Shown here: piece by piece, positions 798-57,768 of the stretch | How positions within the stretch are numbered: position 1 is the first letter of the stretch | Layout of the letters: each line of letters opens with the position of its first letter | DNA from: Thermoanaerobaculia bacterium | GTDB taxonomy: Bacteria > Acidobacteriota > Thermoanaerobaculia > Multivoradales > UBA5704 | Length of the DNA: 57,768 nucleotides | Assembly (NCBI GenBank): GCA_044226625.1 | Contig: JBGAGQ010000039.1 | Span: 1 to 57,768 of the forward strand | Direction: 5' to 3' | Position numbers and translations under genes: made by a program | Notes under the pieces: generated by a model | Database searches by the model: none | Told to the model about the DNA's origin: nothing | What the model saw: the letters and a program-made list of their open reading frames with translations, nothing else

Positions 798-825
798 CGC
801 CCCATCTCTCTCAGGCGTCCGCCTC

Positions 826-5161: not shown

Positions 5162-5181
5162 GAGAGCCTAGGGAGCTCCGT

Positions 5182-5445
5182 TCAGGCCGAAACCGGTGCG
5201 AGCTCGGCCAGGCGCGTTTCGACCAGGGAGACCATCTCCGGCAGCGTGCCGATCGACTTGTAACGGTCGTCGGGAAGGTTCAACTGGAAGGAGTAATCGA
5301 CGTCGACGCCGATCTCGAGCAGCGACAGCGAATCCAGCGCCAGGTCGTCGCGCAGCGAATCCTCGTCGCCGATCTTCTCCCGCTTCAACCCGGCGACGTT
5401 GGCGATGATGTCCTTGATCTTTTCGCGGATTTCGTTTCGATCCAT
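5182..5445 (-). CDS. Discrete acyl carrier protein
   Basis: 87 aa acidic protein with LALDSL phosphopantetheine motif; GGGAGG RBS upstream; adjacent to the KS genes. Confidence 0.92.
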   Translation of the reverse strand: MDRNEIREKIKDIIANVAGLKREKIGDEDSLRDDLALDSLSLLEIGVDVDYSFQLNLPDDRYKSIGTLPEMVSLVETRLAELAPVSA

Positions 5446-5499
5446 GGCCTACCTCCCGGTGTTGCCCGCCGCCCGGCGGATCTTGCTCGTCCTGCCGAT

Positions 5500-5580
5500 C
5501 GATCCTAGGCGCCCGAAGCCCGAAAGTGAATCTTTCTCAGCGTCGGAAGGTCCTTTGAAATAAGGACTTGCGCGTCTATC
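5500..5580 (-). promoter_or_regulatory. Probable promoter/operator region of the ACP-KS-CLF-halogenase-CCO operon
   Basis: AT-richer patch in the longest intergenic gap (5446-5734). Contains the inverted repeat GTCCTT-N6-AAGGAC at 5550-5567. No clear -35/-10 could be assigned. Confidence 0.35.
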
Positions 5581-5734
5581 GCCGACCGGATCGTCAGCTC
5601 GCCCAAGAGAGGCTCCGGAAGCGCCCGAAGCGTTACATCTCCCGTGTCCGGGAGGGCGAGAAGCGGGACCCGAGCCGCTCAGCGGCTCAGGGAAGGAATC
5701 CGGCGGAGGCCTCGGAAATGAAGCCGTCGCAGGC

Positions 5735-6616
5735 TCAGAGAAGGAGGATCAGGGCGACGCCGCCGGCCATCAGCAGGACCGCCAGCAGCTTTCTGGGTGT
5801 GAGCGGCTCGTGGAAGGCGAGGCGGCCGACGCCGAGCGCGAACAGGCTGCCGACCGTCCGCTTGAGCGTCTCGACGACGCTCACCCAGACCCATTGCAGA
5901 GCGGCGAGCTGCGCGCCGAGCGCCACGCCCGAAACGCCGAGCGCGGCGAGGAAGACGAGCGGCTTGCGCTTGACCTCGACCAGCCGATGCAGCTCTCTCC
6001 GCTGTGCGAGCAGCAGGAGCCCGCCGAGGGCGACGCCCGCGTTCATCACGAGAGCATGGAACGGCGGATGCGATCGGGTGACCGCAAGCTTGTCGAGCGG
6101 GATGGTGAGCGACCAGAAGAGCGCGGTGCCCGCCATCATCCGGAAGCTGCGGCGCGCGACGATCGCGCGCCAGCTCCACCCGCCCTCGCCGCTCGCGGTC
6201 TGCAGGACGAACGCCCCGCCGACCACGAGCGCGATGCCGCAGCCGTCGAGGAACGTCGGCCGCTCGCCGAGCAGGGGGATCGCGAGCAGGGCGGCGAACG
6301 CCGGGGTGAGCGAGAGGAGCGGCACGGCGACCGACAGCTCCCCCGTGCGCAACGCCTCCAGGTACATCAGGTTCGCCGCGACGTTGAGGGCGATCGAGGC
6401 GAGCGCCACCACCCAATAGCCGGGAGCGGCCGAGAAGCCCCCCTCGAGGGCCGCCCAGATCGCGAACGGCGGGATCGAGGCGAGACAGAGCAGGGCCATC
6501 AAGGGCAGCGGGCCGATCTCCCGCGCAAGCAGCTTGCGCAGCAGATCGAACCCCGCCCAGGAGACGGCGGAGAGCAGGACGAGGGCAAGCGGCCCGGCGG
6601 CGATCCCAGCGAACAT
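5735..6616 (-). CDS. EamA/DMT-family membrane transporter
   Basis: 293 aa, very hydrophobic, two-fold repeat with about 10 TM segments; typical DMT segments (AVPLLSLTPAF..LLGERP, ..FHEPLTPRKLLAVLLMAGG). Confidence 0.85.
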   Translation of the reverse strand: MFAGIAAGPLALVLLSAVSWAGFDLLRKLLAREIGPLPLMALLCLASIPPFAIWAALEGGFSAAPGYWVVALASIALNVAANLMYLEALRTGELSVAVPLLSLTPAFAALLAIPLLGERPTFLDGCGIALVVGGAFVLQTASGEGGWSWRAIVARRSFRMMAGTALFWSLTIPLDKLAVTRSHPPFHALVMNAGVALGGLLLLAQRRELHRLVEVKRKPLVFLAALGVSGVALGAQLAALQWVWVSVVETLKRTVGSLFALGVGRLAFHEPLTPRKLLAVLLMAGGVALILLL

Positions 6617-6696: not shown

Positions 6697-7512
6697 CTAT
6701 CCCGGCTTTCGTGCCGTCACGGCGAAGAAGCGGTTCGGTTGGACCAGCCGTTCGGCGAGCTTGAGGCGCGCTTTTTCCGCCGCGTCGATCTCGGCCAGCT
6801 CGTGCAACCGGACCTCCTCGAACCCCGCCTGGGCGATCAGCTCCGGGAAACGGCGCCGGTTTCCGGGGGCGCGGAGCGGCAGGTGCTTTTCGAAGCTCCC
6901 GTCGTAGCCGCGGCGGAGCCGGCGCCGGGCCGCCCACGGGTTGCGCCGCGTGGCGAGCAGCAGGAGCAAGCTGCCCAGGAAGCGCTTCACGCGATAGGAC
7001 GGCGGGTCGTCGAACCAGTCGCCGTCGACCACGACGAGCAGTCCACCCGGGGCGAGCACGCGATACCAATCGGCGAGCGCCTTGTCGGGCTCCGGCAAGG
7101 TCCACAAGACGTTGCGGTTGATCACCCGATCGTAGGCACCGTCCGGTTCGGGACACCCTTCGGCGTCCGCGACCTCGAACTTCGCCTTGAGCCCGCGCTC
7201 ACCGGCGAGCTCGCGCGCCCGGTCGATCATGCCCGGCGACAGATCCAGCCCGCGAACGGAGTGGCCCAGCTCCGCGGCGAGCAGGGCGAGGAAGCCGGTC
7301 CCGGTCCCGACGTCGAGCACCCTCTGCGGCGCCGGCCCGAGCGCGCCCTCGAGGAAGGAGAGCCAGGCGCGGCGCTGGCGTTCGAGTGTGATGCCCTGGG
7401 CGCGCTCGAACCCGCGGCTTCGCTCGTCCCAGTAGCGGGCGAGCCTCGCCTTGAGGTCCGAGGTGTCGGGCCTAGCCGCGGGACCGGTCGATGCGGCCTG
7501 CTCCGCACTCAC
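6697..7512 (-). CDS. Class I SAM-dependent methyltransferase, ~271 aa
   Basis: VLDVGTGTG motif I, GLDLSPGM, ADAE, YDRVINRNVLWTL, LAPGG. Likely start is GTG 7512, a GTGA overlap with the upstream stop; the ORF-track extension to 8001 is out-of-frame overlap. Confidence 0.88.
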   Translation of the reverse strand: MSAEQAASTGPAARPDTSDLKARLARYWDERSRGFERAQGITLERQRRAWLSFLEGALGPAPQRVLDVGTGTGFLALLAAELGHSVRGLDLSPGMIDRARELAGERGLKAKFEVADAEGCPEPDGAYDRVINRNVLWTLPEPDKALADWYRVLAPGGLLVVVDGDWFDDPPSYRVKRFLGSLLLLLATRRNPWAARRRLRRGYDGSFEKHLPLRAPGNRRRFPELIAQAGFEEVRLHELAEIDAAEKARLKLAERLVQPNRFFAVTARKPG

Positions 7513-9110
7513 GCCGAAACCGCCCAGGCGCCGGCCTCGGTTTCTGCCTCCGTGAGCTCCGTGAGGGCCATCTCGCGATCGAGATAGGCCAGCAGCGGCT
7601 TGCGGTGGAGCGCCTCGTCGCGCCATTCGCCGAAAAGGTGCTCGAGCAGGTGGTGCTCGGAGATCTTCGTGCCGCCACGGTAGTGCCGGATCACCGGGTG
7701 GAGGAAGAAGCTCTCCTGCGCCCGGTCGGGATCGGGACGGCGCTCCACGCTGAAGGGGTCGCCGTCGGTCCTGCCGAACTCGAGCGTCACGACGAATTGA
7801 CTGGAGGCGGCGAGAGAGCCCTCCCGCAGGTAGTCGACCGGCATCTCCTCGAGCAGTCGGATCGGTCCCTCCCCCTCCGGCAGCACGAAAATCTCGCCGA
7901 GGTAGCCGAACATCTGCCAGAGCGCGGAGGTCCGGTTGATCCGCGCGAGGATCGCCTCGGCCAACCCCTCCGGCGTGGGTTCGACCTCCGGTCCGGGCCA
8001 CGCGGCGCCGTGGTAGCGCTCCTCAAGGATCCGATGGAGGGCACGGCAGTTGTAGCGGAACCCGTGGATGAAACCGGACGTGATCTTCTTGAAGTCGCGC
8101 ATCTGCATCAGCGTGCCCGCGATGTAGAGGCCCGGCACGTTCGTCGACTCCCAAGCGCTGGTCTGGGCGGGGAATCGATCGGCGATCGCGAGCTCCGGCC
8201 GGCAAGATTCGTCGAAGATCGAGGCATCGAAGCGGAATCCGGTGCAGACGATCACCCGGTCGTAGAGGAGCGCCTCCTGCTCCTCGTGGGCATGGCTGTA
8301 GGTGACCTTGACCTCGAAGCGGCCGTCGTCGCGCCGGGAGATGCGATCGATGACGCAGTCGAGCACAGCGTTCTGCGACTTGAGCTGATAGGTGTCGAGC
8401 ACGTTGTTGTTGACCGCCCGAAGATGCCCGACGTGATGGCTGCGCCACGCGAACTGCACCGGCCGGGGGCTCGCGATGTGGAGGATCGCCGCCCGCGAGA
8501 CCAGGTGGTCCGCGGTCTCGAAACCGGAGTTTCCCTTGCCGATGATCAACACGCGCTGGTCGCGGAACTCGTCGCGGTCGACCGAGACGTCGACGTAGCT
8601 GTCGGCCAGCTCAATGCCCGGGATCTCGGGGACGAACGCCCGCGACACCCCGGTCGCGACGACCAACCGCTCCACCGAGTAGCGCTTCCCCCCCTCGACC
8701 TCGACCTCGAACCGGTCCGGCCGAGAAATCCTTCGTACGCGGGATCCGAAGCGGACGCGCAGAGCGAACTGGGCCGCGAACTCTTCGAGGTACCGCACCA
8801 TGACGTCGGCGTGGGGGAAGAAGTCGAGGCTGTAGTTCTTGAACAGCATCTCGGGATCGTCGGAGAGCAGAGAGTTCCAATCGAAACGGAGATTGACTTC
8901 AGGATCGTCGCAGCCGGTGAACACCTTGTTGTTCGAGATCAGCTGCCGATGGCGCGGGAAGCGCCGGAAGAAGGCGCCGGCTCCCGAAGCCGCCTCGAGG
9001 ATCAAATAGTCGCGCCCCGCGCGCTCGAGGAAATACCCCAACTGCAGCCCGGCGGGTCCGGCTCCGACGATCAACGTCTCTACCGTTTCGACTTCTGCTC
9101 TTTCGGTCAT
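7509..9110 (-). CDS. FAD/NAD(P)H-dependent oxidoreductase, FMO-like fold (FOXRED2-like), ~533 aa
   Basis: Two Rossmann motifs (IVGAGPAG; IIGKGNSG), ATG and CTGF motifs, FPRHRQLISNNK and SGFIHGFRY segments that I recognise from FOXRED2-like flavoproteins. ATG 9110 has a GGAG RBS. Confidence 0.75.
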   Translation of the reverse strand: MTERAEVETVETLIVGAGPAGLQLGYFLERAGRDYLILEAASGAGAFFRRFPRHRQLISNNKVFTGCDDPEVNLRFDWNSLLSDDPEMLFKNYSLDFFPHADVMVRYLEEFAAQFALRVRFGSRVRRISRPDRFEVEVEGGKRYSVERLVVATGVSRAFVPEIPGIELADSYVDVSVDRDEFRDQRVLIIGKGNSGFETADHLVSRAAILHIASPRPVQFAWRSHHVGHLRAVNNNVLDTYQLKSQNAVLDCVIDRISRRDDGRFEVKVTYSHAHEEQEALLYDRVIVCTGFRFDASIFDESCRPELAIADRFPAQTSAWESTNVPGLYIAGTLMQMRDFKKITSGFIHGFRYNCRALHRILEERYHGAAWPGPEVEPTPEGLAEAILARINRTSALWQMFGYLGEIFVLPEGEGPIRLLEEMPVDYLREGSLAASSQFVVTLEFGRTDGDPFSVERRPDPDRAQESFFLHPVIRHYRGGTKISEHHLLEHLFGEWRDEALHRKPLLAYLDREMALTELTEAETEAGAWAVSA

Positions 9111-9129
9111 CGCAATTCTCCGAGAACCA

Positions 9130-10500
9130 TCAGTTGGCAAGGGACAGCCGCTCCTCGCGAGCGAGGACTTCGAGATGGGAGGTGACCAACGAGCGGACCT
9201 CGGCTCCGCCGAGGCGCTGGCGGACCTGAGGTATTCCCATTAGTCGATCGACGAGGCCGCGCTGCCGCTTGTCGACGGCCAGGGCCTCGGCGTAAGGAAC
9301 TTGGGTGAACGAGATCAACGAATAGAGCGAACGGTAACGTTCCGGATGTGCCTCTTCGAGCCAACGTTCGATCTCTTTGCGCAGCAGGAATTCGGTCGTT
9401 CCGAGCAGATCGCGAAGCTCGTGGAAATGCTCGAGCGCGAGCTCGGCGATCGCGTCCGCGTTGGGCTTCCTTCGCCGCTGGTATTCGGCGAACGCCCATC
9501 GCCAATCGCCCTTGGATTGAGCGACGCAATCCGCGAGCACGGAGCAGTCTTCGAAGCCGCAGTTCGCGCCTTGGCCGTAGGACGGCACGATCGCGTGGGC
9601 CGCGTCGCCGATCAGGGCCACCTTGTCCTCCCAGATCCAGGGCGCGCAGCGGACGGTCACCATCGTCGTCTCGCTGCGGAAGAAGAAGTCCTCGACCAGG
9701 GTGGGAAGCAGCGGCAGCGCGTCCGGGAACGAGCTCTCGAACAGCCGGATCACGGCCTCCGGGCTGTCGATCGACTCGAAGGAAACCTCCCCCTCGAACG
9801 GCATGTGGAGCGAGACGGTGAAGCTCCCGTCGCGATTGGGAAAGCCGATCAACATATAGCGTCCCCGTGGCCAGACGTGGATCGCGTTGCCGTCGATCCG
9901 CCAGGCTCCATCGGGCGCCGCGGGCAGCCGCAGCTCGCGATACCCCTGGTCGAGGAACTCCTGCCGGTAGTCGAAGCGGGGCACCATCTGCATCCGCAGG
10001 CGGACCATCGAGCGCGCGCCGTCGGCTCCGAGCAAGCGGTTTCCGATCCGCCGCACCACCTCGCCGTTGGCCCGCTCGAAAGTGGCGCCCGGAGCGTCGA
10101 GATCGACCTCGAGGCAGCGCTCTTCGAACCGCGCCTCGACCCGGCCGCGAGCGAGCACGTGGTCGATCAAAACGGCGTTCAGCTCGTTGCGGGACACCGA
10201 CCAGATGGCGCTGCCGTGGTTGTCGTAGGGCTGACGGGTGGTACTGCCATCGATGCCGTGGACGATCCGTCCTCGGCACGGCACGGCGATCGCGCGCACT
10301 CGACCGGCCGCCCCGATCCGTTCGAGGGCGGCGAAGCCCCGGTCGCAGATGGTCAAATTGATCGAGCGCCCTCCCGCGGCGCGTGGGCTGCGTGGGTCGG
10401 GATGGCGGTCGCAAACCTCCACCTCGTGGCCGAGGTCCGCGAGGAACCCCGCCACCACGGACCCGACTAGGCCGGAACCAATGACCAGGACTTTGTCCAA
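9130..10500 (-). CDS. kmo: Kynurenine 3-monooxygenase-like FAD monooxygenase
   Basis: IGSGLVG, GRSINL, GADGARS, HVWPRG, LIGDAAHAIVPSYGQGANCGFED, RKPNADAIAELA, YSLISF match the KMO family. TTG start with AGGAGG RBS. Confidence 0.82.
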   Translation of the reverse strand: MDKVLVIGSGLVGSVVAGFLADLGHEVEVCDRHPDPRSPRAAGGRSINLTICDRGFAALERIGAAGRVRAIAVPCRGRIVHGIDGSTTRQPYDNHGSAIWSVSRNELNAVLIDHVLARGRVEARFEERCLEVDLDAPGATFERANGEVVRRIGNRLLGADGARSMVRLRMQMVPRFDYRQEFLDQGYRELRLPAAPDGAWRIDGNAIHVWPRGRYMLIGFPNRDGSFTVSLHMPFEGEVSFESIDSPEAVIRLFESSFPDALPLLPTLVEDFFFRSETTMVTVRCAPWIWEDKVALIGDAAHAIVPSYGQGANCGFEDCSVLADCVAQSKGDWRWAFAEYQRRRKPNADAIAELALEHFHELRDLLGTTEFLLRKEIERWLEEAHPERYRSLYSLISFTQVPYAEALAVDKRQRGLVDRLMGIPQVRQRLGGAEVRSLVTSHLEVLAREERLSLAN

Positions 10501-10504
10501 CGAG

Positions 10505-11986
10505 CTAGCCTCCTTTTCCTGACTGAGCGTTGCGGCGGAAATCCACGACGTCGAGCGGTCGGTCCGGCTGGCGGCTTCCCTCGGCGATCACCCGCGCGAT
10601 CTCCCGGATGACGGCGTTGCCCTCGTCCGCGGTCAGCAGGTCGGGGCCGTAGCCAAGGTCCAGCCTGAGCCCACCGGGCGCATCGCGGGCGTAGAGCGTG
10701 AGGTCGAAATCGGTGCCGAGCTCGGTGGTCGCGAGCGGCAGGAAGGAGACGCCGGCCGAGGTCGTCGGCTCGGCGTGTCCCGCACCTCCGGAGGGAACGT
10801 TGAGCATCACCCGCACCCAGGGGGTGCGCCAGGGCTCCGCGGCCGGCTCGATCGCGCGGCCGAGCCGCTCGAATGGCACCTCGGCGTGCGCGAACGCCGC
10901 GAGCGCCGCGTCGCGGGCGCGGACCACCGCGGCGCGCAACGTCGTCCCCGGGTCGAGCGGAATGCGCAGGATGACCAGATTCAAGAACAGGCCGACCGTC
11001 TGCGCGAGCTCCGGCCGCGCGCGCGACGAGAACGGCGTCGCGATCGCCACCTCACCCGCACCCAGACCGCCCATGACCGCCCGCAGCGCGGCGAGCACGA
11101 GCTGGAACAGCGTGGCGCGCTCGCCCTGGACGAATGCGCGCGCCTCGACGCTGGTCATCGGTCCGAGCGTGAACGACGCGTTTCCCGCCGGCAGCCCCGC
11201 GCGCCGTGGCATGACGGTGCCGTCGAACGGGAGGCCCGCGAGCTCGCGCCGCCACCAGGAGATTTCGGACCCGTAGCCCTCCGGTCCGGACGCCTCGGCG
11301 CGCCCGTGCTCCCAGGCGGCGAAATCCGACATCTGGCGCGGCGGTGGCGCGAGACCCGGCGCCCGGCCCGACGCGAGGTCGCCGTAGAGCGCCGCGAGGT
11401 CGCGGGCACAGAGCGCGAGCGACCAGCCGTCGAGGCAGATGTGATGGGCTCCGAGCAGCAGCACGTGCTCGAAGCGCGAGCGGTGGACGAGCGCGGCGCG
11501 AGCGACCGGGCCCCGCTGGAGGTCGAACGGCGCGGCTCCGAAGGAGCGCGACACTCGGCCGCGGTCCTCGTCGAAGCGCGCGGCGGCAAGAGCCGAGAGA
11601 TCCACGAGGGGCAGCGGGTCGGCGACCGGCTCGGGCTCGATCATGGCACTCGGTACGCCATCGACCGCGGGGAAGCAGGTCCGCAGCGCCTCGTGCCGCG
11701 CGATCAGTGCGCCGAAGGCGGCGGCCAGCGCCGCGGGGAGCAGAGGGCCGGAAAGCCCGAGCGAGTGCAGGACGTTGTAGGCGGGCCGATCCGGAAACTC
11801 GCGCGCGTGATGCCACAGGCGCTCCTGGGCGAACGAGGGACGGGGCGCTTCCGCCTCCGGCCGGCGAGGAACCGAGGCGAGCTTCTCCTCGTCAGGCCGA
11901 CTGGAGGCGGCCTGGAGGCGCTTCGCGAGCAGCGCCCGCTGCGCGGGCGACAGGCGGTCGCGGCGGGAGGCAAGGTCCGAGGTCAT
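10505..11986 (-). CDS. Stand-alone NRPS condensation domain protein (putative chain release)
   Basis: PSFAQERLW, RHEALRT, intact HHICLDGWS, VGLFLN, HAEVPFE; no A or T domain; ATGA-coupled to the upstream methyltransferase. Confidence 0.9.
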   Translation of the reverse strand: MTSDLASRRDRLSPAQRALLAKRLQAASSRPDEEKLASVPRRPEAEAPRPSFAQERLWHHAREFPDRPAYNVLHSLGLSGPLLPAALAAAFGALIARHEALRTCFPAVDGVPSAMIEPEPVADPLPLVDLSALAAARFDEDRGRVSRSFGAAPFDLQRGPVARAALVHRSRFEHVLLLGAHHICLDGWSLALCARDLAALYGDLASGRAPGLAPPPRQMSDFAAWEHGRAEASGPEGYGSEISWWRRELAGLPFDGTVMPRRAGLPAGNASFTLGPMTSVEARAFVQGERATLFQLVLAALRAVMGGLGAGEVAIATPFSSRARPELAQTVGLFLNLVILRIPLDPGTTLRAAVVRARDAALAAFAHAEVPFERLGRAIEPAAEPWRTPWVRVMLNVPSGGAGHAEPTTSAGVSFLPLATTELGTDFDLTLYARDAPGGLRLDLGYGPDLLTADEGNAVIREIARVIAEGSRQPDRPLDVVDFRRNAQSGKGG

Positions 11987-13286
11987 GGCCGGAACGAATC
12001 GCTCTCCCGAAGATCGGCGCGCGCGATCATCACGTCGACGCCGAGCGTCCAGGCGGCGCCGCCCGGAGCGGTGAACGTGGCGAAATCCCCGAAGCCCGAC
12101 GCGAGGAGCTCGCGCCCCCAGTCGGCCGCGGGAAGGAGCGGGTGGAGCGGCCGAAGCCCGGAGTCCTCGAAGCTGTCGAAGCCGGGCAGGAAGCCCATCG
12201 AGAAGTGGTACTTCCTCTGGAACCGCACCTCTTCGAGCAGGAGGAGGACGCCGCCCGGGGCGAGCAGTCGGCGCACCCGGCGCAGGGTGTCTTCGACCCG
12301 CCTCGTCGCGTGCAGCACGTGCGCCGCGATCAACCAGTCAAAGCCGCCGGGCGGGAAACCCTGCTCGTCCGGCTCGCGTTCCAGATCGAGCTCGCGCGAG
12401 GCGACGAAGCCGAACTCGGCGTATTTCCGCCGGCCGAGGTCGGTGAAGAACTTCGAGACGTCGGTGAACAGAAAGAGGCTCCGGTCCGCCGGCAAGAGCG
12501 GCAGCAGCGAGGAGGTCGTCCCGCCCGTCCCCGCGCCGACCTCGATCAGCCGGAGCCGGCGATCCTCCGGCAGCGCCGCCGCCTGCTCCGCGAGCACCGC
12601 GCTCGCGATGCCGTTGCAGTAGCGGAAGATCGGCAGCTCGCGATAGCTCGTCTCGACCGACTGCGAGGAGCCGCCCGGCAGGTAGAACTCGAGCGGATGG
12701 GTCCGCCCGTCGAGCACCTTGGCGAGGTTCTCGGCGTAATAGGTCCGGTGCTCGGGAGACAAGAGCGCGGCGGCCTCGGGGCCGGGGATCGGCGCGGGCG
12801 AGGCGAACCGTTCTCCCCTGCGCTCGAGGAGCCCCGCCTCCGCCAGGGTGTCGAGCCACCGGTTGAGCACCTTGCGGTGCTTGGGCAGCACCCCGTGGTC
12901 GCGGATCAGATCGTCGGCGGAATGCTCCTCCCCCGCGGCCTGGAACAGGCCGAGCCCCGCGAGGCCGCAGGCGACGATCGCCGCGGCCTGGGCGTCGAGC
13001 GACGCCTCGCGCGCGGCGTCCGCGACCAGGTCGGGCAGCTCGGCGAGCTCCGACGCGGCCCGCTCCCCCGCGGCGACCAGCCGCTGCCAGAGCTGGCCCG
13101 AGACGGGAGCGACGCCCGGGGAGCCGCCGAACAGGATGGGCCGCAGGTCGACGGCCTCCTCGGCTTCGACCGGCGGCGGCGGGGCGGGCACCGCCTCGGC
13201 CTCGACGGTGAGCCCGCGCAGGCGGCGCTCGAGCAGCGCGCGCTTCTCGGGCGACAGGCGCGAGCGACGCTCATCCAACCCCGCGC

Positions 13287-13290
<4 letters not shown>
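11983..13290 (-). CDS. Stand-alone PKS/NRPS-type SAM-dependent (C-)methyltransferase with N-terminal docking-like helix
   Basis: LIEVGAGTGGTT, FTDVS, LDLE, AAHVLHAT, LAPGGVLLL resemble methyltransferase domains normally embedded in PKS/NRPS. GTGA-coupled to the last megasynthase. Confidence 0.85.
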
Positions 13291-19703
<6,413 letters not shown>

Positions 19704-19708
19704 GGCTC

Positions 19709-47571: not shown

Positions 47572-50500
47572 GGCTCGCTCACCTCGCCGACGATCGCCGG
47601 CGTCGTTTCATCAGCGTCTCCCCCTTCGCCGCGGACTCGCCGCCGCTCCAGCCGCTCGCGCACCCCTTCGTCGGGCAGGCTCTCGACGCTCAGGTAGAGG
47701 CTCGCGATCTTGCGGGCGCGGCCGGGACGGCCCTCACGGCTTTCGACCAACCGGGCAAGGCTTTCGACCGTCGTTCCGCCGAAGAAATCGCGTAGCGGCA
47801 GCTCGATCCGGAACACCTTCGAGATCCGCGAAACGATGCGCGTGGCGAGCAGCGAGTGGCCTCCGAGGTCGAAGAAGTCCTCGTCGATGCCCACCTTTTC
47901 GAGGCCGAGCACCTCGGCCCAGAGACCCGCGAGGACCTCCTCGACGGGATCGCGTGGTTGCGAGAACGCGCGGTCGTCGCGCAGACTCTCGGGCTCCGGC
48001 AGCGCGCGGCGATCGATCTTGCCGCTCGGGCTCTTCGGCCATCGCGCGACCGAAACGAACGCGGCGGGCACCATGTGCTCCGGAAGCCGTCCGAGAAGGA
48101 ACCGGCGAAGGTCTCCGATCGGCTTCGCCTCGGTCGCCCCGCTCTGTTGGATCGCGTCGATCCCGTTCGCTTCGGGCTCGACCGTGACCGGCCGGTACCA
48201 GGCGGTCAGGCGCCGACCGACGCCGGGGGTCTCGCGCGCCAGGACGATCGCCTCGGCGACCTGCGGATGGGCCGCGAGCGCCGCCTCGATCTCGCCCGGC
48301 TCGATCCGGAAGCCGCGGATCTTTACCTGCCCGTCGAGCCGTCCCAGGTAGTCGAACGAACCGTCGCCGCGCCGGAACACCCGGTCGCCGGTCCGGTAGA
48401 GCCGAGCCCCCGGCTCTCCCCAGGGATCCGGGCGGAAGCGCTCCGCGGTCAGGTCCGGCCGAGAGAAATAGCCGCGCGCGAGCAGGCCGCCGATCGCGAG
48501 CTCGCCCTGACCGCCGAGCGGCACCAGGTCGCCCTTCGAATCGACCGTGTAGGCCGTTCGCCGAGGCAGCGGCCGGCCGATCGAGACGTGGCCCGAGCCC
48601 GGCAGCGGCCCGACGGCCAAAGGATGTGCGGTCGCCGCGACCACCCCCTCGGTCGGCCCGTAGGCGTTCCAGGCCGACAAGGGAGCCGGCGAAGCCGCGA
48701 GCCGCGCGCGGAATCGCGCCGCCGCCTGGACCGTCATCGCCTCGCCGCCGGCATAGAGCATCCGCAACCGGGAAGGAAGCGGCTCGATCGACTCGGTCCA
48801 TTCCGCCCAAAGCGGCGTGGGAAGCGTCGCGCAGGTGATCCGCAGCCGATCGAGCCACGACGAAAGCTCGAGGGGCCGCGGCGGCTCCGGGCCGCGGACG
48901 ACGAGCGTCGCCCCCGCTGCGAGCGCCATGCCGACCTGATCGACCGCGAGATCAAAGCTCATCGCGCCGAGCAGCACCACGCGGTCGTCGGGACCCAGGC
49001 GGTAGAAGTCCGCCGCCGAGATGAAGTGGCCCGCGGCGTGGCGATGGCTCACCGCGACCCCTTTCGGCGTCCCGGTCGAGCCCGAGGTGTAGATCAGGTA
49101 GGCGAGGTTTTCCGGCAAGGGAGCGACCGGCTCGCCGTGCTCGGCGGGGCCGCCCTCCCCCGCGGGCAGGCCGGCGGAGTCGAGCAGTAAGACCGGCAGC
49201 TCGCCGAGCGCCACGGACTCGGGGATCGAGCCGGTCCGGGCGATCAGAACCGAGGCCCCGGATTCCCGCACCAGCAGCGCCCGCCGCGCCAAGGGAAGCT
49301 CGGGATCGATCGGCAGATAGCAAGCGCCCGCGCGCCAGATCGCGTACATCGCGAGCGCGCGATCGACCGACCAGTCGAGGGATACCGCGACCACGCGCTC
49401 CGGCCCGGCCCCAAGGGCGGCGAGCCGCCGCGCGATCGAGCTCGCCCGGAGGTCGACCTCGGCCCAAGTGAGCGCGCGACCCGTCTCGTGCTCCGATTCG
49501 AGCGCCGCCGCAGCCGGCCGCTCGCGCGCATGGCGGGCGAGGAGGGCGTCGAGCGTGCTCGGCGGAAGCCCTCGTTCCCCGTCGTTCCATTCGACGCTCA
49601 GCTGGTGGCGTTCGGCGAGGGTGAGGAGCGAAAGCGCGGCGAGGTCCGCCCCGGGGTCGGCGAGCGCCGCGGCGAGCAGCGCTTCGACCCGGCTCGCAAG
49701 TCGAGCCGCGGTTGCGGGATCGAAGAGCGCGGCCGAGTACTCGAGCCCTCCGGAAATGCCGGCCGGCGCATCGGAAAGCGCGAGCGTGAGGTCGAACTTC
49801 GCGGTGGTCCCGGTACCGGCCGCGCCGCCGGGCCAGGGGGCGACGGCGAGATCCGGCAGACCGGGGGCTTCGCTCTGCGGCTGGAGCGTGTAGAGGACCT
49901 GGACCAGCGGTGGCCTGGAAGGATCGCGCTCGGGCTTGAGCTCCTCGACCAGCTTCTCGAACGGCAGATCCTGATGGGCCGCCGCGTCGAGCACGCATTC
50001 GCGGGCGGCGGCGATCGCCGAGCGGAGGCTCGCGCCGGAAGCGAGGCCGCCGCGCAGCACCAGGGTGTTGGCGAAGAACCCGATCAGCCCTTCGACCTCC
50101 ACCCGCTCGCGATTCGCCACCGGCGATCCGACCAGCACCTCGTCTCGCCCGGCGAGACGGCAGAGCAGCGCCTGGAACACCGCGAGCCCGACCATGTAGA
50201 GCGTGGCGCTCTCGCGCCGCGCGAGAGCCCGCAGGTCGCGGGAGAGGTCGGAACCAAGGCGAACCGGGCGCGTACCGCCGCGGAAGCTCTGGTACGGCGG
50301 TCGCGGCCGGTCCGCGGGCAAGTCGAGCGCCGTCGGTACGCCCTCGAGCCGCCGCCGCCAGTATTCGACCTGCCTTTCGAGCACCTCGCCCGAGAGCCAC
50401 TCGCGCTGCCAGATCGCGAAGTCCGCGTATTGGATCGGCAGCTCCGGCAGCGGTGAAGGTCCGCGCTCGCGCGCCGCGCCGTAGAGGAGGGACAGCTCGC

Positions 50501-53500
50501 GCAGCAGGACGCCGCGCGACCAGGCGTCCGAAGCGACGTGGTGCTGGGTGAGCAGCCCGATGTTCGTCTCGGCTCCGAGCGCAAGGAGCGAGAAGCGCAC
50601 GACCGGGCCGGCCGCGAGGTTGAACGGCCGCATCGCCTCGGCCGCCGTGAGCCGCCGCGCCTCGGCTTCACGCATGGAATCGGGGAGCGCTCGAAGGTCG
50701 GCGAACGGCAAACCGCTTCGAGATTCCCCTCCGGCACCGACCGGCGCGATCCGTTCGATCGGCTCGCCGTCCACCTCGGGGAAGCGGGTGCGCAGCACCT
50801 CGTGTCGGCGGACGATCTCGCGCAGCGCTCCGGCGAGCGCGGCGACGTCGAGCGCGCCATCCAGGCGGAGCGCCAACGGCAAGTTGTAAGCGGAGCTGTC
50901 GGGTTCGAAGCGGTGAAGGAACCAGAGCCGCTGCTGGGCGAACGAGACCGGAGCGTCTCCCCCGAGATCCCCCCGCCGGCCGGCGACGATCGGCGGCGAC
51001 GACGAGGCGCCCGCGGAGCGCCGCGCCTCGATCTCGCGAGCGAGCCTCGCGATCGTCGGATGCTCGAAGACCGCGCGCACGGGGAGGTCGATGCCAAGCG
51101 CACCGCGCACCCGCGCGACCACCCGCGTCGCCAGGAGCGAGTGGCCGCCGAGCGCGAAGAAGTCGTCTTCGGCCGCGATTCCAGTCAACGGTGTCGGCAC
51201 AGTTGCCGCAGTCGGGACGGGGGCGCCGATTTCCGGCCGGCCGAGGACCTCGGACCAGATCGCTTCCAGGATCTGCTCCGTCGGAGTCCGTGGCGCCCGG
51301 CCCCCCGACGGCGAGGAGCGCGTCGGCTCCGGCAGAGCCGAGCGGTCGATCTTCCCGCTCGGGAGCCGCGGCATCTCCGGCAGCTCCATCCAGGCTGCGG
51401 GAAGCATCGTCTCCGGGAGCCGCTCCGCGAGGAACCTTTCGAGCTCTTCGCTCGCGGTGCTCGCGCCTTCCTTCGCCACCCAATAGGCGGCGAGCAGCGC
51501 CCCGTGCGGGCCGCTCCCGCGCAGCGCGACGGCCGCCTGCATCACCGCGGGATGGGTCGCGAGAACGGCCTCGATCTCGCCGACCTCGATCCGCACGCCG
51601 CGGACCTTCACCTGGCCGTCGATCCGGCCGAGGTACTCGATCTCGCCATCGGCGAGGAGCCGCGCGAGATCGCCGGTCCGGTAGGCGCGCGCTCCGGTCT
51701 CCCCGGTCGCCGCCGGAACGAAGCGCTCCGCGGTTAGGTCCGGCCGGTGGAGATACCCCGAGGCGAGGTGGATCCCGGAGATCCGCAGCTCCCCGGGGAC
51801 GCCGATCGGAGCGGGCTCTCCGCCCAGCTCACGGAGCGACTCTGCGATCGAGAGATGGACGCGCGACAGCGGCCGCCCGAGCGGCACGTTCGCCCGCTCC
51901 CCCCAACCCGACCGGAGCGCGGCGCTCGCTCCGACGCGTGGGAAGGAAGCGACGTCGATCGCCGCCTCGGTGGGGCCGTAGAGGTTCGCGAGCGCGGCGC
52001 CCGGAAGCAGCGCGGTCGCGCGCCGGACGGTCTCGACCGGCAGCGCCTCTCCCCCGGCGAACAGACGCTCGAGCGTCCGGCACGAGGCCACCTCCGGCTC
52101 TTCCAGGAATGCCTGGAGCATCGACGGGACGAGCTGCAGGACCGTCGCCGCATGCTCGATGACCGCGCCGACCAGATAGCCGCTGTCGCGATGTCCACCC
52201 GGCCGCGCGACGATCAGACGCGCGCCGCAGTGGAGCGGAAGGAAGATCTCCCAGATCGAGGCGTCGAACGCGAGCGGCGTCTTGTAGAGCACCCGATCGT
52301 CGGCGTCGAGCGGATGGTCGGTCGCCATCCAGACCACCCGGTTGACGATCGCCCGGTGCGGCACGACGACTCCCTTCGGCCGCCCCGTGGAACCGGAGGT
52401 GTAGATCACGTACGCCGGGGCCGACGCCGGCAGCGAATCGCCGCCCGCTCGATGCCCCTGCTCCGCCGCGAGGGTCGACAGGTCGATCCGGAGAGCGGCC
52501 AGGGGTGCCGATGCGGGCTCCTCGTCGTCCCCTCCTCTCCCTCCGAGCACAGCCCACACCTGCGCGTCCTCGAGCATGTATCGACGACGCTCGGCCGGAA
52601 GATCGGGATCGACTGGCACATAGGCCGCGCCCGCGGCCAAGATGCCGAGCAAGCCGACGACCTGATCGAGCGACCGGTCGATCGAGAGAGCGACCCGGTC
52701 ACCCGGCCGCACGCCGAGCCGACGGAGGCCCGCGGCGACGGCGCGCGCCCGGACGGCGAGCTCCGCGTAGCTGATGAGCCCCGCCGCCGATTCGATGGCC
52801 GGACGCTCCGGCGTCCGCTCCGCCTGCCGGAAGAAGAGATCGTGGAGCAGGAGCTCGCCGGCATCGGGGCCCGGCCGGTCGTTCCATTCGACCGCGAGCT
52901 GGTGGCGTTCGGCCGGCGCGAGCGCGTCGAGCTCCGCGATCGGCGTGGTCGGGCGCTCGAGCATCGCGGCGACCAGGCGCGGGATGCGCAACGCGAGCCG
53001 CGCCGTGGTCGCCGGATCGAAGAGGTGCCGGTCGTATTCGATCCCGCCGACCAGGCCGCCCGAGGCGCCGCTCCGCTCGGACAGGGTGAGCGAGAGATCG
53101 AACTTTCCGAGGGCGTCCCATGGGCGCCACATCGAGAGCGAGAGGCCTGGCAGCTCGGTGCCTTCGGGCGGCTCCTCGGCCGCGTTCTGGAGCGTGAAGC
53201 TCACCTGGAACAGCGGTGCGGTCGCGAGGTCGCGCGACGGCGCGAGCGCCTCGACGACCTTCTCGAACGGCATCTCCTGGTGTGCGAACGCATCGATCGC
53301 GACGGCGCGGGCCTGGCCGAGCAGCTCGCGCCAGGAGGGCGAAGCGCCGAGTTCGAGCCGGAGCACCAGGGTGTTCACGAAGAGGCCGATCAGCGGTTCG
53401 ACCTCCGCGCGATGGCGACCCGCGACGAACGTGCCGAGCGAGAGATCCGCTTGGCCGGTCCACCGAAGGAGCGACGCGAAGAACGCCGCGGCAAGCCCCA

Positions 53501-56500
53501 TGAACGACGTGGCTCCCGCGTCGCGGCACTCCGCCGCGAGCGCGCTCGCGAGCCGGGCTGGCAGATCCACCGGCCGGCGAGCCCCGGCGACCGGCCGCGC
53601 GGACCGCCGCGGCCGATCGGTCGGCAGGGCCATCGGCGGCGCTCCCGCCAACCGTTCGCGCCAGTACGAGATCTCCCGACTCGTTCGATCCCGGGTCAGG
53701 CGCTCGCGTTGCCAGAGCGCGAAGTCGGCGTATTGCAAGCCGGGAGCCGGTAGGTCCGGGCAACGCCCCGCGGCGAGCGCGGCATAGGCCGGCAGCATCT
53801 CGCGCACCAGAACACCGAGCGACCAGCCGTCCGCGGCGATGTGATGTAACCGCAAGAGCAGCGCGTGCTCGTTCGCGGCCAGCCGAACCAGCAACGCCGA
53901 GGCGACCGGTCCGCGGGCGAGATCGAAGCCGCGCCGCGCCTCGGTCGCGACGGCACGGCGCGCGAGGTCCTCGGCACGATCCGCAGAGACGCGCGACAGG
54001 TCGACGACCGCGAACGGGAACGGCGCCGGCGGGCCGATCCGCTGCACCGGCCGCCCGTCGACTTCGACGAACGTCGTGCGTAGGACGAGGTGACGTTCGG
54101 CAACCCGAGTCAGCGCGCCGCGCAACGCCCGCGCGTCGAGCGCCCCCGTCAACCGCAGCGCAAGCGGCATGTTGTAGGTGGGACTTCCCGGCATCAGACG
54201 ATCGAGGAACCAGAGCCGTTCCTGCGCGAACGAGAGCGGCGCTTCGGGCGATCGTTCCCCGGGGACCGCGATCCACGCGCTCCGGGCCGGAATCGGACGT
54301 TCGCGCACCCGTCCGGGCGGCGTCTCGTAACCGAGGCGCGCCGCGGTCTCCCAGGTCGGCTCTCCGAAGGCGGCGTCGTCCAGCTCGGACCGCCAGCGCT
54401 CGGCGACCCCCGCTTGCACACCACCGTGTCCCAGGAACTTGACGTCGCCCAACATCCGCGAGGCCGCGTGCGGTCCGTCGGTCATCCGCCGAGACGAGCG
54501 ATCCTCGTAGGGCGCCGCCATCGCGGGCTCGAACGGCAGCCCGAGGAATTCGCAAGCTTCAGCGAGCACCCGCTCCGGCTCGCGGACCAGCTCTTCGAAG
54601 ACCACCCGATGGTGCCGCTCCTCCGGAACGCCGCCCAGGAAATCCAGGATGTTGCGATGGCTCGCGGTCCAGATCAGCTCGGCCAGCTCGCGTCGGGCGA
54701 AGGAATGCGGGCGGCGGAAGAAAATCTGATCGAGCTTCGCCTCCTCGAACGAGCGGATCATCCCTCCGGGATGGCGGACCAGATGGAGATAGCGCGCGCC
54801 CTCGAACTCCTCCTCGGCGCGGCGGAGCACCCGGGGATCGAGGGCGTACGAAGGGGTCTTGTCGACCAGCATCCGCTCGCCCAGATCCCTGGCGAGCAGG
54901 CCGTAGAAGCGACGGGTCGAGAGGTCGCGCGCCTCGAAGCCGGCGACCAGCTCGCGCGCCTCTTCGACTGTCGCACCTCGGATCTCCATCACGGCGCGGA
55001 TCACCCCTTCGAGCCAGAAGCTGTCGCGTCCCGAGAACGCCGCGCGGCGCTCGCCGAGGGTTTGGAACGAAAGCAGCTCCAGCTCGGGCGGCGCGAACAG
55101 CGCCGGATGACCCGCGAGCATCACCCGCAGGAGCGTCGTGCCCGAACGCGGCGGCGAGAGGACGAACAGCACCGGCGGGTTCTTGGCCGCCTCGCGGTCC
55201 ACGGTCGACGGAGGGCCGAGCGGCCGGACGAGTGCCGCGAGCGCCGCGAGCTTCGACTTGTCGATCCCGGGCTCGATGGCTCCTCGACCGAAGGAATCGG
55301 AACCGCCCGCTCCTCGCGCGGCGAGGAGGCGCCGCGCCGCCCGCGGGTGCTCCGCCTCGACGTAGCGCGCGAGCGCCTCGATCGTGGGGTGGTCGAAGAT
55401 CACGACGACCTGAACGATCTCGCCCAGGTCCTGCTGCAGGCGGTTCACCAGCATCGCCCCACGGATCGAGTTGCCGCCCGACTCGAAAAAGTCGTCCTCG
55501 GCCCCGACGCTTTCCGAGGGCAACGCCAAAACCTCCGACCAGATCGCGGCGATCCACGACTCCAGCTCGTTCCGCGGTGCGATCCGCGCTCGCGCCGTCG
55601 ATGGCTCACGCTCCGGCGCCGGCAGGGCGCGACGGTCCACCTTGCCGTGCGACGTGAGAGGAAGCGACGGCAGCTCCACCAGCGCCGTCGGCACCATGTA
55701 GTCGGGCAGACGCGAGCCGAGATACGTACGCACCTCCGCGAGCGACGGCACCGACTCGCCCACCGCGTAGGCGACCAATCGCGCATCCTCGCCCTGCGAT
55801 TCGCCGCGCAGGACCACGACGCACTCGCGCACGCCCGGGTGTGATGCCACCGCCGCCTCGATCTCTCCCAGCTCGATCCGGAAGCCGCGCACCTTCACTT
55901 GGGTATCGATCCGACCGAGGTACTCGAGGTCGCCGTCCGGCAGCCGCCTTCCTAGGTCGCCCGAACGGTAGCGCCGCGCTCCCGGCACCGGGCTCCCGGG
56001 ATCGGGCACGAAACGCGCCGCCGTCAGGTCCGGACGGCCGAGATAGCCGATCGCTAGGCCCGCGCCTCCCACCAGGATCTCCCCCGCCACCCCCAACGGC
56101 GCGGGGTCCACCCCGTTCCAGAGGTCGACCGCCTGCGCCGAGAGGTCCGGAATCGCGCGACCGATGACGCTCCCCCGCGCCGTGTCCGCCGAGCGGATCG
56201 GCCGGTACGTCACGTGCACCGTCGTCTCGGTGATGCCGTACATGTTCACCAGCGTCGGTTGGCGGTCGCCGTGACGCGCGAACCAAGGGCGCAGGCTCGA
56301 CAGCTCCAACGCCTCGCCGCCGAACACCACCGTCCGGAGCGCCAGATCCGAAGCTGCCGCTGGGCCTTCGATCGCCTGGAAAGCGCGGAACGCCGACGGC
56401 GTCTGGTTCAGCACCGTCACCCGTTCCTCGGCGAGCAGACGCAGCAGCTCCGACGGGGTCCTGCTCACCCAATACGGCACGATCGTGAGCCGCCCACCGA

Positions 56501-57768
56501 GGAGCAGCGGCCCCCACAGCTCCCAGACCGAGAAGTCGAAGGCGTAGGAGTGGAACAGCGTCCAGACGTCGGAATGCTCGAAGCCGAACCACTCTTCCGT
56601 CGCGTCGAACAGGCGGGCGACGTTCGCATGGGTCACCACCACGCCCTTCGGCCGGCCCGTCGAGCCCGAGGTGTAGATCACGTACGCCGGCAGCTCGGGC
56701 GCGATGTCCAACGCACCTTCGAGGAGACCAGCCGCGGGAGTCGGCTCGACCGCATCGGTCGCGTCAGCGAGCAGAACGCGGACGCTGCTGTCCGGCAGGG
56801 CTGAAACCGTCGCGGATTCGGCGAGCACGAGGCGCACGCCGCTGTCCGCGAGGAGATAGGAGAGCCGCTCCGCCGGATAGTGCGGATCGAGCGGCACGTA
56901 CGCCGCCCCGGTGTTCAGGATTCCGAGCAGCGCCGAGACCATCTCGATCGAGCGCTCCGTACACAGACCGACCCGATCGCCCACGGCGACGCCAGCCGCG
57001 GCCAGACGCCGCCCGATCCCGCGGGCCCGCCGCGCCAGCTCCCCGTAGGTGATCGATCGATCCCCGAGGCTCACCGCGATCGCGTCCGGCCGGCGCGCCG
57101 CCTGCTCGGCGAATCGAGTCGTCAGCGCCACCGTCGGCCGGGGTCGCTCCGGCGTACCCCAGGTCGAGATCAGCTCGTCCCGCTCACCGTCCGACAGGAG
57201 CGGCAGCTCGGCGAGCGGCGTCTCCGGTGCGGCCACCGCGAACGCCAACAGCCGCCGCCAATGCTCCGCCCAACGCTCGAGCGTCGAGCCGTCGAACAGG
57301 TCGAGGCTGTAGCGGAAGACGCCCGAGATGCCCCCCGGTCCCTCGCTCAGGTTCGCCACCAGATCGAACTTCGAGGTCGCCCCTTCGGGAGCCGCGGCGC
57401 TCAACTCGAGCCCCGGAAGCGAGAGCACTTCGGAGCGCGCGTTCTGCAGCTGGAACATCACCTGGAACAGCGGCGAGCGCGACAGGTCCCGCTCCGGCTG
57501 CACCTCCTCGACCACCCGCTCGAACGGAACCTCCTGGTGCGCGAACGCCCCCAGCGCCACCTCCCGAGCGAGACCGAGGTGCGCCGCGACGTCCGTTTGA
57601 GCCGACAGGCGAGTGCGGAGCACGAGGGTATTGACGAAGAAGCCGATCAGCGGCTCGAGCTCGCGCCGGCTCCGGCCCGCGACGGTCGTGCCGATCGCGA
57701 CGTCCCCTTCGCCGGAGATCCGCGCGAGCAGCGCCTGGAAGCTCGCGAGCAGCGCCATATAGCGCGTG
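47568..57768 (-). CDS. NRPS, 5'-truncated: (C)-A(Thr)-PCP-Sulfotransferase-C-A(Gln)-PCP-C-A(X1)-PCP
   Basis: The frame is open to the window edge in mid-C domain, so the track start at 57758 is internal. A codes read as DFWNVGMVHK (Thr), DAWQFGLIDK (Gln), DLDTYGAVAK (unknown). PCPs GGNS, GGHS, GGHS. C motifs HHIAADG and HHVASDA. Confidence 0.94.
   Translation of the reverse strand, partial: [3399 protein letters not shown]
54325..55185 (-). other. Embedded PAPS-dependent sulfotransferase domain (approximate bounds)
   Basis: [30 protein letters not shown] (5'-PSB loop), [20 protein letters not shown] (3'-PB), [11 protein letters not shown]; closely resembles CurM/Ols-type ST motifs. Confidence 0.9.

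Follow-up and report, generated by a model that had tools for sequence, protein, structure and literature searches.

Positions 6697-57768 of the window, by which we mean the whole stretch of DNA that was analysed (57,768 nt), probably make up most of a single hybrid NRPS-PKS cluster, namely its downstream portion, a reading in which we include the pathway proposed below and a start of the line on a second contig (C98). Sequence analysis confirmed that the window holds a real, uncharacterised assembly line for a long peptide-polyketide, and the product structure given here is the colinear prediction from that line. The source is a metagenome-assembled genome (MAG) of an uncultured soil bacterium of the Thermoanaerobaculia (Acidobacteriota), and the window is a complete contig. 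Two congeners carry partial orthologous lines, and the G007 genome has orthologues of the end of gene B and of genes C, D, E, F, G and I at 68-86% identity. No characterised relative turned up, the relatives found being MAG or metagenome proteins, and a literature search found no description matching this cluster.

Nine genes were delimited across this interval by open reading frame layout and Pfam, all on the minus strand. Gene A (47568-57767, 3399 aa, truncated 5' at the contig edge) has the domain order [C half]-A-PCP-ST-C-A-PCP-C-A-PCP, with ST denoting a sulfotransferase domain; gene B (34297-47571, 4424 aa) has four C-A-PCP modules; gene C (19709-34300, 4863 aa) is C-A-PCP-KS-AT-KR-ACP-C-A-PCP-C-A-PCP; and gene D (13287-19703, 2138 aa) is KS-AT-ACP-Cy-A-PCP. 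These are followed by a free-standing PKS-type C-methyltransferase (gene E, 11983-13290, 435 aa), a free-standing condensation domain (gene F, 10505-11986, 493 aa), an FAD monooxygenase (gene G, 9130-10500), a flavin-containing monooxygenase (Pyr_redox_3; gene H, 7509-9140), whose membership of the cluster is doubtful, and a class I SAM methyltransferase (gene I, 6697-7512, 271 aa with the GTG at 7512 as start codon). As described in an earlier note on this DNA, most of these genes are coupled by NTGA overlaps, which were present at 5 of the 8 junctions (A/B and B/C TTGA, D/E and H/I GTGA, E/F ATGA), and the C/D and F/G junctions are spacers of 4-5 nt.

Genes A-I together encode 11 A domains, 11 C or Cy domains plus one cut C, 11 PCPs, two KS-AT modules and one sulfotransferase domain, so the count by Pfam and domain map agrees with the 11 NRPS and two PKS modules proposed earlier. 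C, A and PCP recur in module order, as in a modular NRPS, and the domain calls, whose Pfam E-values lie between 1e-26 and 0, are not due to chance. The active-site motifs of the C, Cy and KS domains are intact, with variant C motifs in A_C3 (HHxxxDA) and B_C2 (NHxxxDG). The line had also been described as lacking a thioesterase (TE) and as having its loading end beyond the right edge of the window. Pfam scans of A-I detected neither a thioesterase nor a reductase domain, and no inter-domain gap in these genes is long enough to hide one; at the right edge the contig ends with gene A starting inside a C domain.

Specificity codes were read from our own alignment of the A domains and not from a predictor program. 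In order, they are DFWNVGMVHK (Thr type), DAWQFGLIDK (Gln type) and DLDTYGAVAK (X1) in gene A; Thr, Ser, Gly and Ser types in gene B; DPWDFGIIDK (X2), DLFNCALTYK (Ala type) and DIVQRTLIYK (X3) in gene C; and DLWNMSMIWK (Cys type) in gene D. Gln, Ser, Gly, Ala and Cys are the substrates that we take the respective codes to denote, and the X1, X2 and X3 codes (3 of 11) matched no nameable substrate. All four A domains extracted from G007 (Ser, Ala, X3 and Cys) have codes identical to those of the window. Domains and codes together reproduced the colinear order proposed earlier, Thr(+ST)-Gln-X1-Thr(+dehydrating-type C)-Ser-Gly-Ser-X2(+malonate, KR)-Ala-X3(+malonate, keto)-Cys(Cy), in which the in-line ST that comes after a Thr-type module in gene A supports the tentatively sulfated Thr at the start, and matching code types bear out Gln, Ser-Gly-Ser, Ala and Cys. 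The Thr code is printed in a paper on a Planktothrix synthetase (PMC2533009).

After the first Thr the line would add Gln, then X1, and then a second Thr (module B1), which the next C domain along (42748-44271, minus strand) would convert to Dhb by dehydration, followed by Ser-Gly-Ser. The best matches of this divergent C domain, which sits after the gene B Thr module, are McyA (8jbr, E = 6.1e-92) and AmbE (7r9x, E = 1.7e-51); it groups with these "modified amino acid" (modAA) C domains, which supports conversion of the B1 Thr to Dhb, as had been predicted. It resembles the McyA and AmbE domains in best match and in having a Thr module before it, but differs from them in that the first His of HHxxxDG is Asn (NHxxxDG in the alignment). 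Across related loci, 20 of the 23 modAA-type C domains whose upstream A domain could be scored sit after Thr or Ser, a count that is biased by the picking of loci through an ST or a Thr-ST module.

Both PKS modules have the make-up of cis-AT type I modules, each combining a Cys-His-His KS and an ACP with an AT on the same polypeptide. GHSxGE and HAFH AT motifs are visible in the alignment of both. The gene C module (26441-30856, minus strand) is KS-AT-KR-ACP and follows X2, and the gene D module is KS-AT-ACP, without a KR, and follows X3; Pfam and domain map thus uphold the hydroxy and keto units assigned to these two positions. Malonate would extend X2, and reduction would then give a gamma-amino-beta-hydroxy unit; Ala would be added next, and X3, likewise extended by malonate, would keep the beta-keto form. 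Of the statine proposed earlier, the gamma-amino-beta-hydroxy unit derived from X2 stands, but the X2 code is not Leu-like, so we call the predicted unit statine-type. The Cy domain of gene D carries DxxxxD and is paired with a Cys-type A domain, in agreement with the proposed thiazoline; here Cys would be condensed and cyclised.

The earlier note had also raised a possible methylation of that thiazoline, which the relationships of gene E make less fitting. Gene E matches the CurJ C-methyltransferase (5thy, E = 2.5e-49), with residues 75-422 of the query aligned to 37-399 of the chain over both lid and Rossmann parts, and also matches the C-methyltransferases of DisA, AprA (MT2), PsoF and the citrinin PKS; some 70 free-standing relatives, annotated no further than as methyltransferases, were found in Thermoanaerobaculia MAGs. 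Since E is of the CurJ PKS type, and a beta-keto substrate for it exists because the gene D module has no KR, the final beta-keto unit, at its alpha carbon, is a likelier site of methylation than the thiazoline. E would act in trans, being a separate gene and not embedded in a PKS module as in CurJ, and an N-terminal docking-like peptide resembling LSxxxxALLxxxL is common to E, F, B and C. The handover from PKS to Cy resembles that of yersiniabactin HMWP1, with a KS-AT-...-ACP-Cy-...-PCP order passing a polyketide to a cyclising Cys module and a C-methylated ketide unit in both; it differs in that KR and TE are both missing here, the module contains an A domain of its own, and the C-methyltransferase, with its docking-like N terminus, is encoded separately and not embedded.

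At the end of the line, gene F has an intact HHxxxDG and the N-terminal docking-like peptide, in keeping with the free C domain noted previously for this TE-less line, and is a candidate release catalyst. F would dock on D and hand the chain over to a soluble nucleophile, for which G and I may supply an amine or amino acid; that the product carries a terminal amine we can only infer. Free-standing C domains of the VibH type condense a thioester with a soluble amine, and F resembles them in its free-standing state, with an intact active site and a place at the end of a TE-less line, whereas its closest relatives are ordinary elongation C domains (best PDB matches teixobactin Txo1 and Txo2). F has orthologues in G007 (68%), G005 (48%), G008 (46%) and G021 (41%). 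Gene G is, by full-length match (residues 3-421), a homologue of kynurenine 3-monooxygenase (KMO, 6lkd, E = 1.1e-78), and also matches the VioC model below the model cut-off; it has an orthologue in the G007 cluster (80%), and that of I (77%) lies at the end of this cluster.

A competing view, to which we give a little less than even weight, is that no external amine is captured: F would instead hydrolyse the chain off, or close a macrocycle with an internal Ser, Thr or amine as nucleophile, or would serve an aminoacyl-PCP encoded elsewhere in the genome. The elongation-type character of F is consistent with this, the peptide offers several hydroxyl nucleophiles, and no amine-forming enzyme such as a decarboxylase was found in the window. 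Against it, no stand-alone A-PCP was found in the window either, and in G007 the E and F genes are again paired and immediately followed by G and I, a conservation which suggests that F, G and I act together. Gene H is probably a neighbour gene and not a core member, so that all nine genes of the proposed set are present but H probably does not belong to its core: no H orthologue passed the filter on the orthologous G007 contig, the orthologue in G004 (76%) adjoins an EamA block with no NRPS nearby, and H has a GC content of 64% against 71-73% in its flanks.

The upstream partner of the window is likely C98, to judge from how the two contig ends compare. On C98 a P450-FAAL fusion and a MacB permease gene, both conserved in G002, are divergent from a gene whose product opens with KS-AT-ACP-Gly-Gly-Tyr-like(+ST)-C. 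The end of C98 and the start of the window meet at the same C-domain position (27 of 30 nt match, and the three differences are synonymous), and no contig end in the genome other than that of C98 breaks off within the N half of a C domain. A single G007 C domain matches the C98 end in its N half (76%) and the window start in its C half (76%), and a G002 homologue follows C98 at about 75% identity through KS-AT-ACP-Gly-Gly and gene A at 67-70% thereafter. The last three of these points weigh against C98 being a separate paralogous line like that on contig C109, with the window line starting on sequence missing from the bin, a reading that we regard as unlikely. In its favour, C109 has the same Gly-Gly-Tyr-like(+ST) architecture with ST modules 74-80% identical, and there the ST module is followed by Gln and not by a second ST module; moreover, the 30 nt that the ends share carry three mismatches, and there is no exact k-1 overlap, though 76 of 266 contig ends in the assembly have one. 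Given the missing overlap, the three mismatches and the extra Thr modules that G007 has at the place of this junction, one or more modules may intervene between C98 and the window, or the contigs may be unjoined. With C98 as the upstream partner, the line would start at its KS-AT-ACP-Gly-Gly-Tyr-like(+ST)-C, and the complete product would comprise about 14 residues, two of them sulfated, in an N-acylated peptide-polyketide. It counts against this start that the first KS on C98 is a condensing KS with no ACP ahead of it.

The ST domain itself (54525-55175, minus strand; gene A residues 865-1081) follows the PCP of the Thr module and precedes the C domain of the module after it. It matches PF13469 (E = 1.8e-26) and, over the whole domain, the ST of CurM (4gbm, E = 1.3e-67), as well as that of OLS (4gox, E = 5.5e-63); with this homology and its PAPS-binding loops, it is by sequence a CurM/OLS-family sulfotransferase. 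The motifs PRSG(T/S)T, PPELELL and RHP are invariant in 8 of 8 aligned ST relatives, among which the His of the CurM PPELHLL is in every case Glu. Modules of the form A-PCP-ST-C are abundant in this clade, with at least 595 stretches. The loci counted were picked through an ST or a Thr-ST module and give biased counts. Among 69 A domains examined ahead of an ST, 39 were Thr-type, 20 Ser-type, 8 Tyr-like and 2 other. For 108 ST domains in 154 loci, the next domain, readable for 76 and not for 32, was an ordinary C in all 76 and a modAA-type C in none. A quickly built tree of 90 STs showed the phylogeny following the class of the upstream A domain, with one change for the Tyr-like set and seven each for Thr and Ser, as against shuffled means of 28 and 21.

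Module A1 would load Thr, and the ST would O-sulfate the PCP-bound residue with PAPS to give a sulfate ester that is kept. The STs of CurM and OLS act on carrier-bound beta-hydroxy thioesters, and the sulfate is eliminated. By analogy, the domain could be an activating ST that sulfates the Thr or Ser beta-hydroxyl solely to make a leaving group, lost to give Dhb or Dha or displaced intramolecularly to give an oxazoline or aziridine, so that the mature product would bear no sulfate there. These nearest solved relatives speak for such a role, as do the beta-hydroxy amino acids (Thr or Ser) predicted for 59 of the 69 upstream A domains and the parallel between PCP-ST-C here and ACP-ST-TE there, the ST in each case directly following a carrier domain in a megasynthase. 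We nevertheless consider it improbable, since 8 of the 69 modules are Tyr-like, with STs forming one group and a phenol sulfate that could not be eliminated, a modAA-type C would already serve to dehydrate another Thr in the same line, the domain after the ST is an ordinary C wherever readable, the CurM His is replaced, and the single documented NRPS-integrated ST retains its sulfate (PMC2533009). In CurM and OLS a TE follows the ST and the sulfate is removed by decarboxylative elimination, whereas here a C domain follows, and the ST sits in elongation modules of an NRPS, with Thr, Ser or Tyr-like residues as their substrates.

Retention of the sulfate is thus favoured over its use as a leaving group. 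The documented precedent is the Planktothrix oci cyanopeptolin synthetase, in which an ST is likewise built into an NRPS and the sulfate remains in the product (PMC2533009); we liken the two by architecture and not by sequence. The OciA ST acts on a glyceric acid starter at the loading end, whereas the STs described here follow amino-acid modules, number up to several per line and occur in Acidobacteriota. The unusual part of the present line is this built-in sulfate-adding domain, which is common in this group and unstudied.

Domain layout was determined from Pfam scans together with a domain map seeded with the window's own domains. The window is one full contig (C28) of a 6.6 Mb source genome in 133 contigs (G000; completeness 97.9%, contamination 5.5%), and positions 6697-57767 are filled by nine long minus-strand ORFs, with a GC content over the cluster of 70-74%. 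Four are synthetases: gene A ((C half)-A-PCP-ST-C-A-PCP-C-A-PCP, where ST is a sulfotransferase domain), gene B (four C-A-PCP modules), gene C (C-A-PCP-KS-AT-KR-ACP-C-A-PCP-C-A-PCP) and gene D (KS-AT-ACP-Cy-A-PCP, where Cy is a heterocyclisation domain). The others, also on the minus strand, are E (methyltransferase), F (free C domain), G (FAD monooxygenase), H (flavin monooxygenase) and I (methyltransferase). The earlier note had described 11 NRPS and 2 PKS modules without a TE, in genes mostly coupled by NTGA overlaps; Pfam scans and domain map returned the same module count, and NTGA overlaps were present at 5 of the 8 gene junctions. Pfam scans detected no TE or reductase domain in the cluster genes, and the inter-domain gaps are too small to conceal one: a search of these gaps for hidden E, TE, R, Ox and MT domains returned none, the longest (~330 aa) being the structural half of the KR. 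In the C-domain alignment, a weak test, the second His motif that marks dual E/C domains was not seen. The analysis confirmed that the cluster is a real orphan NRPS-PKS system, familiar in its general type, for which the earlier colinear reading holds with small corrections; its variant features, as predicted from sequence, would be an in-line amino-acid ST module, a docking trans C-methyltransferase and, in place of a TE, chain release through a docking free C domain.

Left of the cluster (window 1-6616) lie genes for an EamA transporter, a free ACP, a KS, a KS-like (CLF-like) protein, an FAD enzyme and a dioxygenase of RPE65 type. This block runs on into contig C1 (G000:C1 97302-99758), with which the left window end overlaps exactly over 140 nt, and stays together in three congener genomes (G001, G002 and G004; 68-89% identity), where no NRPS domains were found beside it in the 20 kb covered. 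Since the block recurs without an adjacent NRPS, the left limit of 6697 proposed earlier is right, and a role for these genes in starter supply was rejected as unsupported. The block, with its halogenase-like FAD member and RPE65/lignostilbene-type dioxygenase, appears to be a small type II-like lipid or polyene pathway in its own right. The KS-like gene is present in all five congeners and E in only two of the five, the E query having returned no orthologue in G001, G002 or G004. Membership of H (7509-9140) in the proposed nine-gene cluster is doubtful because its GC content is 64% (71-73% in its flanks), it had no match above the filter (E 1e-20, identity >50%) on the orthologous contig of congener G007, and its orthologue in G004 (76%) adjoins the EamA block; its other matches are weak only, and it may be a neighbouring gene that has been relocated. 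In G004, a stand-alone ST-like ORF recovered by an ST-seed match (L181 9097-10152, G004:C13) separates the H orthologue from EamA and lies on the opposite strand.

The loading end had been placed beyond the right edge, as borne out by gene A beginning at position 246 inside a C domain at the end of a complete contig. Contig C98 of the same genome stops at C-domain position 254 and, of all contig ends with NRPS/PKS matches, its end alone falls within the N half of such a domain. It encodes KS-AT-ACP-C-A(Gly)-PCP-C-A(Gly)-PCP-C-A(DASTVAAVCK, Tyr-like)-PCP-ST-C, and its end and the window start share a 30-nt overlap (27 identical, 3 synonymous differences). One G007 C domain matches the C98 end over its N-terminal half (76%) and the window start over its C-terminal half (76%). 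A G002 homologue is ~75% identical to C98 through KS-AT-ACP-Gly-Gly and, past that point, 38-60% identical to C98 and 67-70% to gene A. Divergent from the C98 synthetase are genes for a MacB permease and a P450 fused to an FAAL-like adenylating enzyme, which flank the G002 homologue too (70-72% identity); the fusion gene continues into contig C81 via an exact 140-nt overlap and is directly followed by one for a CAP12/Pycsar-type TIR-domain protein (G000:C81 2813-3808, L182). C98 is thus the likely upstream partner on these sequence comparisons, with extra modules allowed between the contigs. Counting against a direct junction of C98 and the window are the lack of an exact k-1 overlap (76 of 266 contig ends have one), additional Thr modules at the junction place in G007 and the similarity of the C98 ST module to that of the paralogous C109 line (74-80% identity). 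No exact-overlap partner for the right window end or the end of C98 was found among G000 contig ends, and the matches listed from the metagenome scan included no orthologue bridging the junction above 59% identity. The end of the cut C domain (window 57168-57295) is 89% identical over 128 nt to G000:C38 43605-43732, on an otherwise non-NRPS contig.

Ten code positions were read from conserved anchors in an alignment of the 11 window A domains and three from C98; substrate names other than Thr follow the published code and are not predictor output. By gene and module, the codes are A1, DFWNVGMVHK (Thr type); A2, DAWQFGLIDK (Gln type); A3, DLDTYGAVAK (X1); B1, DFWNIGMVHK (Thr type); B2 and B4, both DVWHISLVDK (Ser type); B3, DILQLGLIWK (Gly type); C1, DPWDFGIIDK (X2); C2, DLFNCALTYK (Ala type); C3, DIVQRTLIYK (X3); and D1, DLWNMSMIWK (Cys type), X1 to X3 matching no nameable code. 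They reproduce the colinear residue order proposed earlier, and were identical in 4 of 4 extractable G007 orthologues (Ser, Ala, X3, Cys); the B1 code is printed as a Thr code in PMC2533009. The C domain after B1 is divergent in the alignment (NHxxxDG active site) and best resembles, among solved structures, McyA (6e-92) and AmbE (2e-51), both of the "modified amino acid" dehydrating type (modAA), which backs the predicted formation of Dhb from the second Thr module. The two KS domains of the window retain Cys-His-His, and HAFH is visible in each AT; KSQ-type loading was ruled out, the active-site Cys being kept in 5 of 5 KS domains (two in the window, and those of C98, C109 and G002). As a KR is present in the first PKS module only, X2 would be extended to a gamma-amino-beta-hydroxy unit and X3 to a gamma-amino-beta-keto unit. 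The Cy domain of D carries the DxxxxD motif. The cluster yields a concrete prediction, open to synthesis or expression: an N-acyl, sulfated peptide-polyketide with Dhb, a statine-type unit and a thiazoline.

E matches the CurJ C-MT across lid and core (2.5e-49), and further matches were DisA, AprA MT2, PsoF and citrinin-PKS C-MTs, making the beta-ketoacyl-ACP of D its likely natural substrate. The methyl tentatively put on the thiazoline is therefore more likely carried by the final ketide, at its alpha carbon. E-like free methyltransferases make up ~70 clusters, none named functionally beyond "methyltransferase". F has an intact HHxxxDG and resembles ordinary elongation C domains; the N termini of E and F share an "LS....ALL...L"-type peptide with subunits B and C, which suggests that both dock on the assembly line. 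E and F occupy different frames, and the MT-C fusion seemingly present in G005 and G008 was accordingly rejected as an artefact that stop-free frames produce in high-GC DNA. I has only generic class I methyltransferase matches, ruling out a SibL-like assignment. G is a kynurenine 3-monooxygenase homologue (1e-78); a tryptophan 2,3-dioxygenase gene is located elsewhere in the genome (G000:C133 83706-84497), ~1.6 kb from a further NRPS line whose C-A modules start at 86081, which hints at a kynurenine-containing peptide from that line.

Over its full length, the ST domain (window 54525-55175) is homologous to the CurM ST (4gbm, E 1.3e-67) and to an olefin-synthase ST (4gox), with the PRSG(T/S)T and RHP loops conserved. 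The following counts are indicative only, the loci having been picked via ST or the Thr-ST module and C domains typed with two window seeds. The A domain preceding the ST was of Thr type in 39, Ser in 20, Tyr-like in 8 and other in 2 of 69 cases (68 from 75 genome loci, plus C109). Among 108 ST domains in 154 loci, the next domain was an ordinary C in 76 and a modAA C in none, with nothing readable after 29 and the ORF ending at 3; conversely, 23 modAA C domains with a scorable upstream A followed Thr (18), Ser (2) or other codes (3), and never an ST. A quick tree built from 90 ST domains placed the 9 Tyr-associated STs together (1 change, SH-aLRT 93), and in it the Ser and Thr sets required 7 changes each (shuffle means 21 and 28; 0 of 500 shuffles as low), a clustering signal inflated by kinship of whole modules. 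In our reading, the ST fits the hydroxyl-bearing residue that its module loads and is an alternative to dehydration, not a step towards it. The integrated ST of the oci synthetase, whose sulfate is retained in the product according to PMC2533009, provides a precedent. Together, counts, tree and precedent incline us to a sulfate kept as a stable ester over activation followed by elimination. The rival, in which a CurM-like ST sulfates carrier-bound Ser/Thr as a leaving group for a dehydroamino acid, aziridine or oxazoline, is unlikely. The literature consulted places integrated ST domains only in CurM-type PKSs and cyanobacterial cyanopeptolin synthetases, with none for amino-acid modules or Acidobacteria. 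A more far-reaching reading, also unlikely, is that A-PCP-ST-C represents a hitherto undescribed NRPS tailoring device with hundreds of occurrences in uncultured soil Acidobacteriota, the ST being an activating enzyme in the boldest form of this reading.

In species-representative genomes the ST query matched at least 595 stretches; the Thr-ST module query matched at least 509 metagenome stretches, a count that takes in plain A-module relatives too (best identity 59% among matches listed). Among the matches listed from species-representative genomes, whose titles denote MAGs, 71 of 75 loci are labelled Thermoanaerobaculia, Thermoanaerobaculum, Holophagales or Acidobacteriota, three Chloroflexota or Herpetosiphonaceae and one "uncultured bacterium". 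G007 holds B(end)-C-D-E-F-G-I orthologues at 68-86% identity, and G005 orthologues of E and F. Separately, G005:C520 (L019-L022) carries a single 14,512-aa frame free of stops, which spans 13 C-A-PCP modules and 2 ST domains; two more synthetase genes follow, one with a third ST. NRPS/PKS domains lie on many G000 contigs, at least 16 with C-A pairs; the paralogous line (G000:C109 1-30000; L008, L009) has a C-A-PCP gene, then KS-AT-ACP-Gly-Gly-Tyr-like(+ST)-Gln-Tyr-like onwards.

Thermoanaerobaculia are abundant, uncultured soil bacteria, and we know of no natural products from them. Three parts of the cluster are simple to test in vitro: the on-line ST, the docking trans C-methyltransferase and the docking free C domain for release. 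On-line O-sulfated Ser, Thr or Tyr would be a new handle for NRPS engineering. An activating ST, if true, would be a second, sulfation-elimination route to dehydroamino acids in nonribosomal peptides, paralleling the phosphorylation and glutamylation routes of lanthipeptides; the milder form, in which the sulfate is kept, points to poly-O-sulfated nonribosomal peptides as a large, still hidden family. Its wide recurrence makes the ST module worth an experiment, and settling its role would annotate a whole class of orphan clusters.
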